Shown piece after piece: positions 14,067 through 57,104 of a stretch of DNA of 64,000 bases (position 1 is its first letter; each line of letters begins with the position of its first letter). The notes under the pieces were generated by a model. It saw only the letters and a list, made by a program, of their open reading frames with translations. It was not told the origin of the DNA and ran no database searches. Both the position numbers and the translations under genes were made by a program. This DNA comes from Candidatus Anstonellaceae archaeon (lineage in GTDB: Archaea > Micrarchaeota > Micrarchaeia > Anstonellales > Anstonellaceae), in NCBI GenBank assembly GCA_038887295.1, contig JAWAKW010000001.1, positions 366,359 to 430,358 of the forward strand, written 5' to 3'.

Positions 14067-15494
14067 TTAGCCTTTGACCACGCCAATTGGAACTAGCCTA
14101 GCAACAATATCGCTTAAGCCTGCCTTCTGCACAGAGGCGACCACGTCGTCCACGTTTTTGTAAGCTTCCGGCGCTTCTTCCGCAAGCAGCTCAAATTCTG
14201 TTGCCTTCACCATAATCCCTTTTTGCATCAGGCTGCTTTGTATCTCTTTTCCGCTCCAGGTTTTGACTGCTTTGCTTCTGCTCATTGACCTGCCTGCGCC
14301 ATGGCAGGAAGAGCCCCAAGAATTCTGCATCGCACCTCGCTTTCCTACAAGCACATAGGATGCAGTCCCCATGCTTCCAGGAATCAAAACCGGCTGGCCT
14401 ATCTCCCTATAGTAATCAGGCAATTCCTTTCTGCCCGCAGCAAATGCCCTTGTGGCTCCTTTTCTGTGCACACAAAGCTTCATCCTTTTTCCATCCACTT
14501 CATGCTCTTCGAATTTTGCTATGTTGTGGCAAACATCATATATCAACGGCATCTGGTCACTTGTGCCTTTTCCGAAAACTTCGTCAAAAGTCTGCCTTAC
14601 CCAATGCATCATCACATGCCTGTTGCAAAACGCATAGTTTACAGCGCAATACATTGCCTTGATGTATCTTTCTGCCTCAGGAGAATTTATCGGCGCGCAG
14701 CACAGTTCTGGGTCTGGAAGCTCTATGCCATATTTTCTTGAGGCAGCAATCATTTGCCTTAGGTAGTCATCGCATACTTGATGGCCAAATCCTCTTGAGC
14801 CGCAGTGTATCATTACCACTATCTTGCCCTCTTCAAGGCCGAATTTTTTTGCAACCTCGGGCTGGAAAATTTGCTGGACCTCTTGAAGCTCCACAAAATG
14901 GTTCCCTGCCCCTACGGTTCCAAATTGCGGTAAGCCTCTGCTTTTTGCCTTATCAGAAACAGCTGATGGGTCTGCGCCCTCCATTTTCCCGTTTTCTTCA
15001 GTCCTTTCTTTGTCCTTGCGTGTCCCAAAGCCATTGCGTATTGCCCAATCCACTCCCTCAACTACAGCTTCGTCCAATTCCTGCACTTTCAGTCTCAGCT
15101 TGCCTTTTGATCCGACGCCAGATGGCACGTTCTTGAAAAGAAGGTCAATCAGCTGCCTCTTTTTTTCTTCCACCTCTTTCCTTACAAGTGGAGTGGCAAT
15201 CAGCCTCACCCCGCAGTTAATATCGTACCCTACTCCCCCAGGTGAAATTACGCCTTCTTCCACGTCAAATGCAGCGACCCCACCTATAGGGAAACCATAA
15301 CCTTCATGGCCGTCCGGCATCAGCAAAGAGTGTTTCACTATGCCCGGCAAGCACGCAACATTTTTCAGCTGCTCAAATGTCCTGTCTTTTCCCATTCCTG
15401 CAAAGACTTCCTGCGTTGCAAAGACTCTTGCAGATACCCTCATTTTGCCTTCTTTTTCAATCTCCCAAATTGCAGGTGCTATTTGCTGCGCCAT
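14067..15494 (-). CDS. rtcB: RNA-splicing ligase RtcB
   Basis: MPDGHEGYGFPIGG, GVGYDINCG, GAGNHFVE, HRKGATRA, SCHGAGR, EEAPEAYK. Confidence 0.97.
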   Translation of the reverse strand: MAQQIAPAIWEIEKEGKMRVSARVFATQEVFAGMGKDRTFEQLKNVACLPGIVKHSLLMPDGHEGYGFPIGGVAAFDVEEGVISPGGVGYDINCGVRLIATPLVRKEVEEKKRQLIDLLFKNVPSGVGSKGKLRLKVQELDEAVVEGVDWAIRNGFGTRKDKERTEENGKMEGADPSAVSDKAKSRGLPQFGTVGAGNHFVELQEVQQIFQPEVAKKFGLEEGKIVVMIHCGSRGFGHQVCDDYLRQMIAASRKYGIELPDPELCCAPINSPEAERYIKAMYCAVNYAFCNRHVMMHWVRQTFDEVFGKGTSDQMPLIYDVCHNIAKFEEHEVDGKRMKLCVHRKGATRAFAAGRKELPDYYREIGQPVLIPGSMGTASYVLVGKRGAMQNSWGSSCHGAGRSMSRSKAVKTWSGKEIQSSLMQKGIMVKATEFELLAEEAPEAYKNVDDVVASVQKAGLSDIVARLVPIGVVKG

Positions 15495-15503
15495 TTTCCC
15501 ACT

Positions 15504-16460
15504 TCAAGATGCTATCTCCTTTTTTATCTTCCAGAGGTGCTCTATGCGCTTTGCAGTAAGCGGGTGGGTCATGAAAAGCTCTACGATGCCGCCCTTTTTC
15601 TCTTTCTCCACAGCTTGAGCAAGGGTTGCAGCGTTATCTGCATCAATTGCTTTCATAACCTCAATAAAATCTGTTTTTGCAGCGGAGCTTTCTGCAAAAT
15701 AAAGCGCCTTCACCATGGATTGGCTATTTTCGCCAGAAGTCTTTACTCCATAGCTTATCTTTGCAAGCGCCCTCATCAAAGCTGCAGGGTTCCCAGTCAG
15801 CCGAGCAGAAAACTCATCAGCGTAGTATTCGCGCTGGCGCGAAAGCCACATGACCATCAGCTGCCCAATGAACTGCGCTACAAAAGCACCAAGGAAAGCA
15901 GCAAGCGTGTTTCTTCCCTCTCGATCATTTCCAAAAATCAGCACCCCGTAGTAAAGCGCAACCGGCAAAACAGAAGCCAGTGTCATTACAGCAACGTCGC
16001 GGTTGTTTATGTGCCCAAGTTCGTGGGCTATTACTCCCTCCACTTCCTCACGGTTCAGTACGGACAAAAGGCCAGTGTGGATAGCTATCCCAGAATCATT
16101 CTGCGTCCGTCCGAACGCAAACGCATTCGGGCTTGAGTCATTCACAAGATATATCTTTGGCATGGGCATTCCAGCTTTTTTGCTTAAGCGTTCTACCATT
16201 TCAAAAATCTGCGGAGCGTCCTCGTATTTTAGCTCTTTTGCACCAGTTGCAATCTTTATTATCGTAGGGCCAAAATACCACTGCACGCCGAGCATGAACA
16301 GCGAAACCATCAGCCAAAACATTATGCCTCCAGAGCCGCCTATCCCAGAAGCAACCAAAATCACACCAAGTATTCCGGCAACTAGACCAAATACCAGCAC
16401 GCTAGTCAAAAGTATCCGAAGCCGCAGTCCTATCCCTGGAGTAAATATTTTGCTGCTCAT
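15504..16460 (-). CDS. htpX: Membrane zinc metalloprotease HtpX (M48)
   Basis: PNAFAFG, AHELGHI, SRQREYYAD, FMTHP; N-terminal TM helices. Confidence 0.92.
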   Translation of the reverse strand: MSSKIFTPGIGLRLRILLTSVLVFGLVAGILGVILVASGIGGSGGIMFWLMVSLFMLGVQWYFGPTIIKIATGAKELKYEDAPQIFEMVERLSKKAGMPMPKIYLVNDSSPNAFAFGRTQNDSGIAIHTGLLSVLNREEVEGVIAHELGHINNRDVAVMTLASVLPVALYYGVLIFGNDREGRNTLAAFLGAFVAQFIGQLMVMWLSRQREYYADEFSARLTGNPAALMRALAKISYGVKTSGENSQSMVKALYFAESSAAKTDFIEVMKAIDADNAATLAQAVEKEKKGGIVELFMTHPLTAKRIEHLWKIKKEIAS

Positions 16461-16618
16461 AGCCTCTCACCCAGCACTTTAGTAGTATAACTAACCTTTT
16501 ATTATTATTTTCCCATATTCTGCGTTGCGCCCTTGTAGTCCAACCTGGATAGGACACGAGCCTCCGAATGACTCGGCTTCCAGGCGAAAGTTCGTAATCC
16601 GGGTTCAAATCCCTCCCT

Positions 16619-16697
16619 AGGGGGCACTTATGTTAACCTTAAAGCCCCCTGAGGGTTCACTCGGTAGGGGGCAACCAGAATAAAAGCAGCGCCCCCT
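16619..16697. repeat. Two copies, 47 bp apart, of AGGGGGC-N18-GCCCCCT
   Basis: 16619-16650 and 16666-16697; the loops differ in sequence but both are 18 nt; each copy is followed by a GTTCAC linker. Confidence 0.9.
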
Positions 16698-16810
16698 CAC
16701 CGTTCACCCCCGAATAGTAACTGCAGATTTTGGGGGGCAAGAAAGAGACCCATGTTGGCATTTGTTAAAAACATCAAAGGTTGCCTTTTGCCAACCTCAA
16801 ACTAGCAAAT

Positions 16811-16934
16811 CTGGTGTTGGCATTAGGGGTTGAGGAAAGGGGACAATAGAAACACTGGTGTTCCCCTTTCCACTGGTGTTTGCCTTAGGGGTTGAGGAAA
16901 GGGGACTGTGGATACTCTGGTGTTCCCCTTTCCA
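16811..16934. repeat. 62-bp tandem direct repeat, each unit containing GGAAAGGGGA-N18-TCCCCTTTCC
   Basis: Units 16811-16872 and 16873-16934; differences are concentrated in the loop. Confidence 0.92.
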
Positions 16935-17003
16935 GGAGAGTCCCGGCAAGGGCGCGTTTTTTATCAAAAGTGCTATTAAGCTGTTGCTAGAAAATCACGC
17001 TTT

Positions 17004-19166
17004 ATGCAAAAGAAAATACTGATTACCGCTGCGCTTCCTTACGTGAACAATGTTCCTCATCTTGGCAACATAATAGGCTGTGTGCTTTCTGCAGATGTTT
17101 TTGCGCGGTATTGTAGAAGCAGAGGCTACCCAACCCTTTTTGTATGTGGCACAGATGAATACGGCACCGCAACCGAGGCAAAGGCTTTGGAGGAGGGCAT
17201 AAGCCCACAAGAGCTTTGCGACCGCTACCACCAAATACATCGGAAAATTTATGAATGGTTTGGAATTTCAACTGATATTTTCGGAAGGACCACCACTCCA
17301 CTTCATACTCAAATTACGCACGAGATTTTCCTTGCGCTTTACAAAAATGGCTATATCAAAGAAGATGAAATAGTGCAGGCTTATGATGAGAAAGCCGATA
17401 TGTTTCTTGCAGATCGCTTCATAGAAGGCACCTGCCCGCACTGTGGCTATGAGCAGGCAAGAGCAGATCAGTGCGACAAATGCGGCCGCCTACTCAACTT
17501 CGATGAATTAATCAACCCGATAAGCAAACTCACCAAGACTACTCCAGTCAAAAGGACTTCAAGGCATCTTTTCATAGACCTTCCTGAAATTGAAAAGCAG
17601 CTTGAAGAATGGATTGAAAAGACCTCAAAAGAGGGTTTTTGGTCTGAAAATTCTTATAAAATCTCCAAAGCTTGGCTTTCAGAAGGACTCAAAAAGCGCT
17701 GCATCACACGGGATCTAAAGTGGGGGGTGCCAGTGCCGCTTCCAGGCTGGGAGAAAAAAGTATTTTACGTTTGGTTTGATGCCCCAATCGGCTATATTTC
17801 AATAACCGCCAACTTCACCTCGGACTGGAGAAGCTGGTGGCAGAACCCCAACGAGGTTCTCCTCTATCAGTTTATGGGGAAAGACAATGTGCCATTTCAC
17901 ACAGTCATTTTTCCCTCCACCCTTATGGGAACAAGGCAAAATTGGACGCTAGTCTACCATCTTTCAACAACAGAATTTCTCAATTACGAAGGAGGGAAGT
18001 TCAGCAAATCAAGGGGCGTTGGGGTGTTTGGCAATGACGCAATGGAAAGCGGCATCCCTGCAGATGTTTGGAGATATTATCTGCTTGCAAACAGACCGGA
18101 GAAAACAGACTCTGATTTTACCTGGAAGGACTTTGCAGAAAAGACCAACAACGAGCTGCTTGCAAACCTCGGCAACCTTGTCAACAGGACGCTGGTGTTC
18201 ATTGACCGAGAATTTGGAGGGCAAATCCCTCAGCCTTCGCTTTCAAAAGAAGACCATGCTTTTATTGACTCTCAGAAATCCATTTTCGAAAAAGTTACTG
18301 CGCTTCTTGAGCGCGTGCAGCTCAAAGATGCACTTCACCTCATCATGCACGCAAGCAAGGAAGCAAATGCATATTTCCAAAAACAGCAGCCTTGGAAGAC
18401 TGCAAAAGAGGACAGGCAGCGGTGCGCTAGCGCAATTTTTGTGCTTGCAAACCAGATAAAAGACCTTGCTGTGGCTTTAGAGCCATTCCTGCCACACACC
18501 TCTGCTTCAATTTTTAGCCAGCTTTCCATCCCTCCTAAAAAATGGGAGGATTTAGGACGCCTCTCTTTGTTGCCGGGCCACAGGATTGGAAAGCCTGAAA
18601 TTCTTTTCAGAAAGCTTGAGCCAAAGCAAATTGCCGTGCTTTCGGCCAAATACGGCGGAAAGCAAACAGAAAGCGCAAGCTCTTCTGCACAGATCGCATC
18701 CGATGAGGTTTGGCTGGATTTGGAGGTGGCAAAAATAATCTCTGTCAAGCCCCATCCATCTGCCCAAAAGCTTTACATCGAGAAAATCCGCCTAGGAAAT
18801 GAAGAGAGGCAAATCGTCTCCGGTTTGGTGCCGTACTACAGCCCGCAAGAGCTTGAAGGGAAAAACATAATTTTGGTGAAGAATCTCAAGCCAGCAGTAA
18901 TTCGCGGGGTCGAATCCCAAGGGATGCTGCTTGCAGCCCAAGATGAAAAGGGGAACGTGGAAGTTCTTGTCGTGGATGCTGCAGAGGGCACCAAAGTCCA
19001 AATAGGTTCCTCTTCTGTTGCTGCTTCTTCGCAGATTACGATTGAGCAATTTTTCAGCGTGAAGCTTGAGGTGAAGGACGGCGTTTTTTTGGCAGGCGGC
19101 AAGCCGGTGCTGGTCGGCGGCCGGCCAATCACCACCAAGAGAGTGCTGAACGGAAAGGTGACTTAG
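17004..19166 (+). CDS. metG: Methionine--tRNA ligase with C-terminal tRNA-binding (Trbp111-like) domain
   Basis: LPYVNNVPHLGN, CPHC/CDKC knuckle, YVWFDAPIGY, KFSKS, ESQGMLLA. Confidence 0.97.
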   Translation: MQKKILITAALPYVNNVPHLGNIIGCVLSADVFARYCRSRGYPTLFVCGTDEYGTATEAKALEEGISPQELCDRYHQIHRKIYEWFGISTDIFGRTTTPLHTQITHEIFLALYKNGYIKEDEIVQAYDEKADMFLADRFIEGTCPHCGYEQARADQCDKCGRLLNFDELINPISKLTKTTPVKRTSRHLFIDLPEIEKQLEEWIEKTSKEGFWSENSYKISKAWLSEGLKKRCITRDLKWGVPVPLPGWEKKVFYVWFDAPIGYISITANFTSDWRSWWQNPNEVLLYQFMGKDNVPFHTVIFPSTLMGTRQNWTLVYHLSTTEFLNYEGGKFSKSRGVGVFGNDAMESGIPADVWRYYLLANRPEKTDSDFTWKDFAEKTNNELLANLGNLVNRTLVFIDREFGGQIPQPSLSKEDHAFIDSQKSIFEKVTALLERVQLKDALHLIMHASKEANAYFQKQQPWKTAKEDRQRCASAIFVLANQIKDLAVALEPFLPHTSASIFSQLSIPPKKWEDLGRLSLLPGHRIGKPEILFRKLEPKQIAVLSAKYGGKQTESASSSAQIASDEVWLDLEVAKIISVKPHPSAQKLYIEKIRLGNEERQIVSGLVPYYSPQELEGKNIILVKNLKPAVIRGVESQGMLLAAQDEKGNVEVLVVDAAEGTKVQIGSSSVAASSQITIEQFFSVKLEVKDGVFLAGGKPVLVGGRPITTKRVLNGKVT

Positions 19167-55934: not shown

Positions 55935-56867
55935 ATGAAGCTGAAAAAGCCAAACCTGCAACAAGTATCTGCTGCACTTCTTGCAGGCACCATGCTTGCC
56001 TCCTCAATTTTTTTCAGCAAATTCCTGGAAAGCCATCCCAGCCCAAAAGTCATCCAGTCTCCTGTCGCTCAAACTGCAGTTTCCGACACTATTTCAACCC
56101 CGCTTCGTCTTCAAACCACTTCATTCCGGCCCTCCACACTAAAAAAAGCAAGGCAATATCTTATTGCAAATGGTTTTGAGCATCAGTTTGTGGATTCGCT
56201 TTTTTCTGACAGCAGGCTTTCTAAGCTGAACATTTTTTCTTCTGCTTCCAAGCCTGCCAAAAAGCTAACTTATGAGGAATACAAAAGGCTTTATGGTTTT
56301 GAGGAGCTTGCAGTCAAAGGAGCAAAATTTTATCACTTACACAAAAACCTACTTGATTCGCTTCAATCCTTCACAGGTGTGCCTGCTTTTCTTGTGGTCT
56401 CAATTTTGGGCATAGAAAGTACTTATGGCAACAACTTGGGAAATCACCTCCTAATCAACGTCTTTCTTACAATAATTGAGGACAGGCCAGCAAGAAAGGA
56501 CTTTGCGCTGCAGCAACTTGAGGATTTCCTTGCATTATGCCGGCATTTTGGCATCGACCCATACAGCGTCAAAGGCTCGCATTGGGGCGCATTTTTGCCA
56601 GCCCAATTCATCCCTTCTTCTCTAAGAAAATACCTGCATGTGCTTGACTGCTCCTCATTTGAAGAGCTTTACAATATAGAAAATTCCATCAGGCTTGCAT
56701 TTTCCTACCTTGCAGATGCAGGTGCATCCGCAAAAGAAAATTTTTCGCTTGACAGCTCCAACTACGAAGCAGCATTTGCCTACAATCACTCTTCCTTTTA
56801 TGCCCGCCTTGCAGTTGAGCTTGCAGAAAGGATAAAGCAACTTTCCAAGAAAATGGGGCCGCTGTGA
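55935..56867 (+). CDS. MltB-like lytic murein transglycosylase (SLT_2 family) with N-terminal anchor
   Basis: VSILGIESTYG (catalytic Glu), KGSHWGAFLPAQFIPSS (GSxAGAMGxxQFMPSS-like), AYNHSSFYA..V.ELA..I. Confidence 0.82.
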   Translation: MKLKKPNLQQVSAALLAGTMLASSIFFSKFLESHPSPKVIQSPVAQTAVSDTISTPLRLQTTSFRPSTLKKARQYLIANGFEHQFVDSLFSDSRLSKLNIFSSASKPAKKLTYEEYKRLYGFEELAVKGAKFYHLHKNLLDSLQSFTGVPAFLVVSILGIESTYGNNLGNHLLINVFLTIIEDRPARKDFALQQLEDFLALCRHFGIDPYSVKGSHWGAFLPAQFIPSSLRKYLHVLDCSSFEELYNIENSIRLAFSYLADAGASAKENFSLDSSNYEAAFAYNHSSFYARLAVELAERIKQLSKKMGPL

Positions 56868-56942
56868 TTTGAACACAGATCACTAGGTTTTCCGAATGGG
56901 GTTTCCCGAACCTAGCAGCATACCAGGTTAGCCCACGGCCCC
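56854..56942 (-). tRNA. tRNA-Pro(CGG) with a 16-nt canonical intron (56889-56904)
   Basis: Acceptor GGGGCCG/CGGCCCC+A; anticodon stem CTAGG/CCTAG with loop TT-CGG-GA; BHB central helix TTCG/CGGA; T-arm CTGTG-TTCAAAT-CACAG. Confidence 0.92.
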
Positions 56943-57104
56943 AAGATGCATCTGGCAACACTTAAGGCAGACAGAAAGTTATGAGTGGTATTGATAAAAA
57001 AGTTTAGTGGTGGCTCTGGTGTTGTTGCTATGCCACCAAAGACCCAACTAGTGCAGCTTCTGCTTACCTTCCCATTTTTATTTTTTTCACAAGTAGCATG
57101 ATTC

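Follow-up and report, generated by a model that had tools for sequence, protein, structure and literature searches.

The window analysed here is a 64,000-nt stretch of contig JAWAKW010000001.1 (positions 366,359 to 430,358 of the forward strand, assembly GCA_038887295.1) from a Candidatus Anstonellaceae archaeon of the Candidatus Micrarchaeota, whose genome, called G000 below, is an 866,854-bp short-read assembly with a completeness of 97.6%. All positions without a contig name refer to the window. An array of G/C-rich hairpins at 16610-16940, which a preliminary description had placed inside a tRNA gene, is indeed such an insert: a 331-nt intervening sequence at position 59/60, in the T-loop, of a tRNA-Arg(CCG) gene at 16529-16954. 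Taking out 16568-16588 and 16610-16940 restores the cloverleaf, with pairing throughout the acceptor, D, anticodon and T stems. The exons are complementary across the insert (acceptor GCCCTTG/CAAGGGC, T-stem CCGGG/CCCGG), the acceptor strands being recovered as an inverted repeat, and the anticodon stem CGAGC/GTTCG, the loop CUCCGA...A and the anticodon could be read from the sequence. The gene and its insert comprise the following features.

16529..16567, + strand: exon 1a of tRNA-Arg(CCG), with the acceptor 5' strand GCCCTTG (16529-16535), the D-arm, the 5' strand of the anticodon stem and the loop up to A37
16564-16566, + strand: anticodon CCG
16568..16588, + strand: canonical 21-nt intron at position 37/38, its boundary uncertain by one A
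16589..16609, + strand: exon 1b, with A38, the anticodon stem 3' strand GTTCG, the variable region TAAT, the T-stem 5' strand CCGGG (16599-16603) and T-loop U54-A59, TTCAAA (16604-16609)
16610..16940, + strand: 331-nt intervening sequence at position 59/60, the hairpin array; orthologous inserts occur in the genomes G016 and G009
16615..16660, + strand: module 1 copy a, CCCT-A-GGGGGC, 18-nt loop, GCCCCC-T(G)-AGGG, then TTCAC; the conserved 5' terminal hairpin of the family
16662..16707, + strand: module 1 copy b, a tandem paralogue with the outer stem CGGT/ACCG in place of CCCT/AGGG (compensatory) and a different loop
16705..16738, + strand: module 2 hairpin, CACCCCCG, 18-nt loop, TGGGGGGC, with a T4 run here versus T6-T7 in trailer copies
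16739..16810, + strand: middle module with the GTTGGCA/TGCCAAC hairpin (16754-16795), shared only with the intron copy in tRNA-Gly(TCC) on contig C20
16811..16934, + strand: two tandem 62-nt units, each CTGGTGTT...GGAAAGGGGA-N18-TCCCCTTTCC; found only in G000 and G016, with 1-3 copies per place
16935..16940, + strand: 3' adaptor GGAG + AG, in which GAG can pair with U54-U55-C56 and AG|U60 would form a 3-nt bulge beside the T-stem
16941..16954, + strand: exon 2, with U60, the T-stem 3' strand CCCGG, the acceptor 3' strand CAAGGGC and the discriminator G
16957..16962, + strand: T6 run, the likely archaeal transcription stop of the tRNA gene

Oligo-T termination is established in archaea, which is the basis for taking the T6 run as the stop. 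TCCC is duplicated at the insert ends, so that any site from 59/60 to 63/64 is equivalent. The 5' part of exon 1a is kept in relatives, and the ortholog in G016 carries the same 37/38 intron with 3 substitutions. Owing to the T-loop insert, tRNA-Arg(CCG) is called neither by ARAGORN, with or without the intron option, nor by the Rfam tRNA model.

The individual hairpins reported in the preliminary description are all present. AGGGGGC-N18-GCCCCCT occurs at 16619-16650 and 16666-16697 with a 47-nt period; CCCCCG-N18-TGGGGG was read directly at 16707-16736; the GTTGGCA/TGCCAAC stem was returned by a hairpin script; and GGAAAGGGGA-N18-TCCCCTTTCC lies at 16834-16871 and 16896-16933, within the two 62-nt tandem units, which are 89% identical. 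The fourfold recurrence of CTGGTGTT in the array was likewise borne out (7 matches in the whole window versus 1.75 expected, a number reached by 0 of 100 shuffles), and 16610-16940 holds no open reading frame (ORF) of at least 60 aa, as had been stated. Counting perfect hairpins with a stem of at least 6 and a loop of 3-40 nt, we found 13 in the insert versus a mean of 4.5 in 1000 dinucleotide shuffles (5 of which reached 13), and 4 hairpins with an 18-nt loop versus a mean of 0.135 (reached by 0 of 1000). The fold of 16520-16970 had a z-score of -3.98.

Two points qualify the uniform geometry. The four hairpins with an 18-nt loop are two tandem-duplicated pairs, which leaves two independent types plus the CCCCC/GGGGG hairpin and not five events; the constant loop length is thus partly a product of tandem duplication, and the 47-nt and 62-nt periods are repeat units. 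Across the family, the loop of module 1, a hairpin with a 10-bp stem and a single bulged purine, measures 17-21 nt, and its central C is conserved in at least 90% of 63 copies; some copies pair further inside the loop. Module 1 loops are therefore variable rather than wholly unrelated. None of the Logan DNA contigs of the sequencing runs X1-X3 spans the repeat or shows its joints, so the unit number rests on the short-read assembly. Over the 62-nt units (16808-16951), the depths of short Logan contigs from run X1 add up to as much as ~2486, versus 66-70 in the single-copy flanks, a figure that is not a copy number. The 62-nt unit is abundant in that sample, and loose contig ends match middle modules of G016-like relatives.

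The array belongs to a repeat family that is tied to tRNA genes. A BLAST search of G000 with the insert recovered the same modules at 9 intervals (2121 bp in total), that is, at 8 places besides the array, and all 9 lie inside or abut tRNA genes. T-arm copies ending in the AGGAGAGT|CCCGG adaptor were found in Arg-CCG and in Gly-TCC (contig C20, with the end of C8 copying its 3' junction), and the start of C12 holds the 3' junction of a T-arm copy with the acceptor CAGCCGC, which is that of Gly-CCC in G009. Other copies start 1-2 nt past the discriminator of complete tRNAs (Thr-CGT, Val-TAC, Ala-GGC and, where contigs C12 and C26 end, a Val gene and Leu-TAA, respectively). One copy beside tRNA-Glu(CTC) is reverse-oriented, its GGAAAGGGGA hairpin beginning 2 nt past the discriminator. 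The remaining tRNA genes, ~30 of ~40, have plain T-run trailers and no module. The G000 assembly breaks in the repeat or the adjoining tRNA genes at the end of C8, in C20 and at both ends of C12, C25 and C26, and the 5' exons of Gly-GCC and Gly-CCC are unassembled.

Beyond G000, the 331-nt query gave DNA-level matches in 5 of the 22 other genomes of the genus. The exact module 1 pattern, CTAGGGGGC-N17-19-CCCCCTRAGGG, was found in 35 stretches among 185,579 species genomes, 35 of 35 in Micrarchaeota metagenome-assembled genomes (MAGs), and in 30 stretches of metagenome contigs; viral contigs gave 0 matches to both hairpin patterns. A covariance model of module 1 matched 22/22 genomes of the genus, 31/41 of the family and 41/151 of the order, with 1-19 copies per genome, and 3/3, 4/74 and 2/19 genomes in other families. 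In relatives, module 1 stands at position 73/74 (Val, Ala, Thr, Leu, Pro, His, Phe), at 59/60 (Arg, Gly) and at the canonical position 37/38 (Arg-TCT, Arg-CCT, Cys-GCA), where it heads the whole 98-190-nt intron. Further copies lie in a Phe-Asn spacer or, in reverse orientation, in or beside tRNAs (loci L081 and L120). A crude position classifier assigned 94 distinct copies to 73/74 (22), 59/60 (16), 37/38 (10), tandem arrangements (4) and a locus edge (1) and left 41 without a class, counts that are no census since the classified loci overlap. The repeat is shared by tRNAs of different identity and position. In G000 these are Arg-CCG and Gly-TCC; G009 has it in Arg-CCG and in Gly-GCC, Gly-TCC and Gly-CCC, and relatives in the 37/38 introns named above.

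Two side observations concern the neighbours of module 1 in relatives. At nine loci of more distant Micrarchaeota (L045, L046, L059(-), L089, L095, L105, L122, L125 and L134), module 1 is joined to a second repeat, in which a perfect GCATCGAGC...GCTCGATG-type hairpin precedes TCTGATGCATTTTGC...GCAAAATGCAC; no tRNA is evident alongside. In a relative's tRNA-Arg(CCT) (L065:7478-7760), a module-1 intron at 37/38 occurs together with an unrelated ~48-nt T-loop intron in the same gene.

The stem of module 1 covaries. In the covariance-model alignment (43 matches, 42 of them distinct), 97.8% of the cells pair. Compensatory changes affect 3 of the 10 pairs and 13 cells, of which six went from C-G to A-U, five from C-G to G-C and two from G-C to A-U. 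Covariation scored 0.164 versus 0.078 in shuffles (0 of 500 reached it), and slid partners gave at most 0.03. This alignment was fitted to the model and so favours structure, yet the paired substitutions are plain in the rows; a pattern-selected alignment was uninformative, its stem being fixed by the search pattern (two-sided change in 0 of 10 pairs). In line with the preliminary description, stem and geometry are under selection, and a selected fold of RNA or of single-stranded DNA fits the covariation alike. The array may also hold DNA-level recombination sites, another idea of the preliminary description.

At the level of whole inserts, turnover is evident. Between G000 and G016, the Arg-CCG intron keeps its ends while its middle is replaced, and it holds two versus one of the 62-nt units. 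Unit number, singled out for comparison in the preliminary description, also differs behind tRNA-Ala, with one 62-nt unit in G000 and three in G016. In G000 the Phe-Asn spacer is TT, and in G001 it consists of ~70 nt taken from modules 1 and 2; the 37/38 intron of Arg-TCT is 35 nt long without a module in G000 and is module-headed in G019, G012, G008 and G003. Loops are alike within a genome and unlike between genomes, which suggests homogenisation or repeated replacement. In G001, the tRNA-Asn that follows the filled Phe-Asn spacer is seemingly interrupted in the D-loop and the anticodon region (L132:780-1060), and these inserts are absent in G000.

The 3' junction of the insert is consistent with an intron. 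At this site the bulge AG|U would lie between the T-stem of 5 bp and a helix of 3 bp (U-G, U-A, C-G) with U54-U55-C56, a predicted helix-bulge-helix (hBH) arrangement; splicing endonucleases cut after the second base of each bulge. A script found 7 complete introns of the family, and each of the 7 ends in RGAR + AR|U and can make 3-4 pairs with the T-loop UUCA (two rows of that listing, G000 C1 432770 and 42487, were excluded as non-tRNA). In 2 of 4 copies in G009, and in G008 and G005, the adaptor UGAA-AA|U is a perfect complement of UUCA. The adaptor is present in intron copies only, trailer copies being without it. A fold constrained to the cloverleaf and the 3-bp H helix reached -161.4 versus -168.9 kcal/mol for the free fold, a cost of 7.5 kcal/mol, and left the intron hairpins unchanged.

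Orthologs point the same way. In tRNA-Arg(CCG) upstream of MetRS, a 59/60 insert was found in six genomes of the genus, measuring 20 nt in G010, 26 in G002, 109 in G019, 214 in G009, 236 in G016 and 331 in G000; in the other genera read (G023, G024, G030, G038 and G031), the T-loop of the orthologous tRNA is uninterrupted (5/5). The locus of G004 was masked in this comparison, and that of G018 is a different tRNA. In G009, whose completeness is 100, Gly-GCC, Gly-TCC, Gly-CCC and Arg-CCG all carry 59/60 inserts of the family (175-225 nt), and since glycine tRNAs are indispensable to the cell, these inserts must be removed.

The enzymes that such removal would require are encoded. The sole endonuclease ORF of the genome, in the C1:52216-52719 region, is a full-length 394-aa EndA, whose residues 7-394 align to 4FZ2, the epsilon2 splicing endonuclease of ARMAN-2 (E = 4.9e-129). 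An RtcB ligase is encoded in the window at 14070-15371 (-) (E = 8.4e-179), and the G000 genome also encodes RNase Z. The RtcB gene (ORF 14067-15494) lies ~1.2 kb upstream of the doubly interrupted tRNA-Arg(CCG). In vitro, the ARMAN-2 epsilon2 enzyme cuts a 13-nt hBH intron at position 59/60 (PMC3239211). As for transcription, 5 of 7 intron copies lack a run of T5 or longer, one has T5 and one (G016 Arg) has T7, while 4 of 4 trailer copies in G000 have 2-3 runs of at least T6, the first at +67 to +122. The T-poor introns fit selection for read-through, with the T7 run of G016 Arg as one unexplained exception.

Overall, we think it rather probable, with a good deal of reserve, that a functional tRNA-Arg(CCG) gene carries in 16610-16940 a 59/60 intron removed by protein splicing of the bulge-helix-bulge (BHB) type and that the bulk of this intron is a selfish, non-autonomous, hairpin-ended repeat specific to tRNA junctions. 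Release by splicing, which the preliminary description had proposed, is most likely, as we infer from junction anatomy, orthologs, enzymes and folding; the mobility of the repeat, and how it moves, is our reading of the pattern of copies. In this scheme, the precursor would be transcribed through to the T6 run at 16957-16962, and the intron body would fold into self-contained G/C hairpins. The last six intron bases, GGAG-AG, would pair with T-loop U54-U55-C56, with AG|U60 left as a 3-nt bulge by the T-stem (a relaxed hBH site). A broad-specificity epsilon2 endonuclease would cut A59|U and G|U60, and RtcB would join the exons.

The intron would be long and repetitive because it is made of a lineage-specific modular repeat, which consists of a terminal hairpin (module 1), the CCCCC/GGGGG hairpin, variable middle modules and tandem 62-nt units. 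The repeat would live only in the discarded parts of tRNA transcripts, namely introns at 37/38 and 59/60, 3' trailers from 1-2 nt past base 73 onwards, and the spacers between tRNAs. Genomes would gain and lose it at the DNA level, where its copies would also be duplicated and homogenised, and it may survive because tRNA processing removes it. The hairpins might be kept for the repeat's own propagation, to stop a long insert from disturbing tRNA folding and the splice site, or both.

Several points weigh against this picture. Of the sequencing runs recorded as RNA, none contains the locus. In G000, the H helix has 3 pairs only, one of them G-U, and the 5' site is part of a three-way junction, where it falls in a joint of 4 nt and not in a clean 3-nt bulge, with no h' helix. 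The T7 run in the Arg-CCG intron of G016 should hinder read-through. The classifier left 41 of 94 copies unplaced, ~15 of which could be tied to tRNAs by eye. Searches of G000 for PF07282 and PF01797 (transposases), PF00589 (tyrosine recombinase) and PF00078 (reverse transcriptase) gave 0 matches, other transposase families lying outside the search, so that no enzyme is known that could drive the supposed mobility. Target-site duplications were not seen at most copies (the G000 trailers and the filled/empty Phe-Asn pair). Finally, three features fit a function of the repeat equally well: its conservation in 22 of 22 congeners, its fixed positions at orthologous tRNAs (Val, Ala, Leu, Thr and Glu in G000 and G016), and hairpins that start 0-2 nt from the cleavage site in both orientations.

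There is only a loose likeness between the element's 5' end, AGGGGGCAC, and its reverse-complemented 3' end, AAGGGGAACAC, each end being itself a hairpin, and the 59/60 copies have just the 4-nt TCCC repeat as a direct repeat. At two metagenome or relative loci, direct repeats of tRNA ends were observed that resemble att-type or duplication-type insertion: a 19-nt repeat covering the first 14 bases of a tRNA-Ala-like gene (L108:2641-2716) and a 14-15-nt repeat of an acceptor 3' end on the other strand (L120, around 1501-1550). The preliminary description had also considered that the units might belong to a known MITE (miniature inverted-repeat transposable element) family scattered through the genome; they do form a genomic repeat family, but one that is undescribed in the literature searched, confined to tRNAs and endowed with a covarying stem.

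More tentatively, and with the odds in our view against it, the repeat could be an archaeal counterpart of eukaryotic introners. In that case, a non-autonomous element adapted to tRNA processing junctions would give rise to BHB introns and lengthen them. Such an element would bring its terminal hairpin, acquire a short adaptor complementary to the T-loop or the anticodon region, and spread between tRNA genes without a transposase of its own. Candidate mechanisms are host recombination at the hairpins, or an EndA/RtcB exchange of excised RNA that is then fixed in DNA.

Among the rival explanations, the strongest, which we nevertheless consider unlikely, is that the modules are functional small RNAs riding on tRNA transcripts. 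EndA, for introns, or RNase Z, for trailers, would free hairpin-capped and possibly circular RNAs, which would act as a regulator, a decoy or an antiviral guide by binding a protein or foreign nucleic acid. Introns that host small RNAs are known, such as the tRNA-Trp C/D box intron. The presence of module 1 in 22/22 genomes of the genus and its covarying stem are in keeping with this idea; a hairpin begins within 0-2 nt of the cut site, be it in trailers or in introns of the T-loop or anticodon, and would protect the 5' end of the released RNA, and loops that are alike within and unlike between genomes are what co-evolution with a partner would produce. In a k-mer search of six loop and middle sequences against their own genome only, however, the five 18-nt loops had no match of at least 13 nt once element copies were excluded, and 11-12-mers were near expectation, so the guide or decoy RNAs of the preliminary description gained no support. 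The 28-nt AT-rich middle gave five overlapping 13-mers.

An Rfam scan of 16000-17500 at E <= 10 returned noise only (with a weak sR24 match inside the MetRS gene), known ribozyme models (HDV-like, hatchet and others) gave no match at the same threshold, and a scan of 13 relative loci at gathering thresholds found one tRNA only. The C/D box consensus is RUGAUGA/CUGA. In agreement with the preliminary description, the array has no C/D or H/ACA signature by Rfam or by loop complementarity, which was at chance, and no CRISPR signature. An HDV-like or RNase P minihelix reading of module 1 was also considered; its first base is not G and no model matches, which makes this reading improbable. Also at odds with a functional RNA are the reverse-oriented copies (tRNA-Glu in G000; L081 and L120 in relatives), the middle modules swapped between sister species, and sites filled in one species and empty in another. 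In trailers, moreover, T7 runs ~67 nt in would cut the RNA short before the 62-nt units.

Less likely still is that the terminal hairpin acts in cis to aid tRNA maturation or to protect the gene, either as a rigid helix that shows EndA, RNase Z or RNase P where to cut, or as an insert that breaks integrase attachment sites in the anticodon loop, the T-loop and the 3' end. The occupied positions (37/38, 59/60 and 73/74) are processing junctions, which the hairpin adjoins in either orientation, and the same sublocations of tRNA genes are reportedly used by integrases (Williams 2002; Randau and Soll 2008, the latter as cited in PMC4033280). Yet the ~30 of ~40 G000 tRNA genes without a module indicate that it is not needed for processing, short module-free 59/60 introns work in G010 and G002, and no link to an integrase or a virus was found (PF00589 in G000; hairpin patterns in viral contigs).

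A dead tRNA-Arg(CCG) gene, broken by a MITE-like insertion and with an array unrelated to splicing, would explain why tRNA finders do not call it and why its BHB is merely relaxed. We regard it as very improbable: the two exons are undamaged and are conserved along with the insert in G000, G016, G009 and G019, an insert of this kind is found in each of the three Gly isoacceptors of G009 (completeness 100%), and the adaptor that pairs with the T-loop is confined to intron copies. The serially nested mini-introns of the preliminary description, with each hairpin unit excised separately by the endonuclease, are the least credible option, since the many 3-of-4 helix/bulge combinations returned by a permissive BHB scan of the insert are at chance level for so loose a rule, many rank above the real junction and none lies at a unit boundary, and module 1 has a single bulged purine instead of two staggered 3-nt bulges.

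Three observations in the window concern other features. The central helix of the 37/38 intron of tRNA-Arg(CCG) (16568-16588) pairs at just 3 of 4 positions, with a mismatch at U33, in G000 and G016 alike. The MetRS gene follows at 17004-19166. A default ARAGORN scan of the whole window returned zero tRNAs; tRNA-Leu(CAA) at 56853-56943 (-), which has a 16-nt anticodon-loop intron, was detected only when the program's intron option was set.

The repeat family bears on the question of how tRNA introns are acquired in archaea. It is recognisable at three kinds of site, namely canonical introns, T-loop introns and positions just outside tRNA genes, with filled and empty states between congeners; together with the size series of 20, 26, 109, 214, 236 and 331 nt, these states make intron gain, growth and decay traceable by comparison. 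The lineage with the epsilon2 endonuclease probably tolerates introns ~25 times longer than the 13-nt 59/60 substrate used in vitro. There are practical consequences as well: because of such inserts, tRNA finders miss the Arg-CCG and Gly tRNAs in these genomes, and because the repeat sits there, assemblies break at tRNA genes.

Among known systems, the archaeal tRNA-Trp intron that hosts a C/D box small RNA likewise combines a long structured RNA with a tRNA intron and release by EndA, which in our case is the proposed route. It differs from the insert described here, which has no C/D or H/ACA boxes, no Rfam match and no loop complementarity to its own genome above chance.

The closest counterpart is the 59/60 intron of ARMAN-2 (Candidatus Micrarchaeum acidiphilum). 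Its pre-tRNA-Cys(GCA) has a non-canonical 13-nt intron at this position that is cleaved by the epsilon2 endonuclease (PMC3239211, PMC3488258). That intron shares with ours the phylum and the tRNA position, and the same three-unit endonuclease type is encoded in G000; its relaxed hBH-type site, with the T-stem as outer helix, has a putative counterpart in the array. By position, motif type and enzyme, the predicted intron of the array belongs to the archaeal BHB class, of the ARMAN-2 59/60 kind. The difference lies in length and make-up, 13 nt there versus 331 nt here (73 to 331 nt in the family), and in the repeated hairpin modules held in common with other tRNA genes. In the literature searched, we found no mention of such a length, of a modular hairpin build, of a covarying terminal hairpin or of an occurrence in trailers, spacers and both orientations; the supplementary ARMAN tRNA lists (PMC3239211) lie outside that search and might show related introns. 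In the Micrarchaeota genome papers PMC8561730 and PMC12892359, the word "intron" occurs 0 times.

The transposed tRNA introns of Thermoproteales (Fujishima et al. 2010, as summarised in PMC4090602 and PMC4033280) are near-identical introns in different tRNAs of a lineage, at canonical as well as non-canonical sites. There, too, copying between tRNA genes is implied, by a mechanism that is not known. Those families belong to another phylum. The repeat described here is also met outside introns: in 3' trailers directly behind base 73, within a spacer between two tRNAs, and in reverse orientation. It further has a conserved, covarying terminal hairpin and tandem internal units, features that the Thermoproteales families may share.

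With MITEs, REP/PATE-type palindromic repeats and eukaryotic introners (PMC11282704), finally, the family has in common that it is short, non-coding and multi-copy, with terminal or subterminal hairpins, variable inner modules and changes in copy number. It departs from them in its strict association with tRNA processing junctions, in showing at most copies neither target-site duplications nor terminal inverted repeats that are clear, and in having no cognate transposase among the families searched. As with introners, the element coincides with intron boundaries, and if the introner-like reading were true, the family would offer the first route of arrival of archaeal tRNA introns that can be traced.

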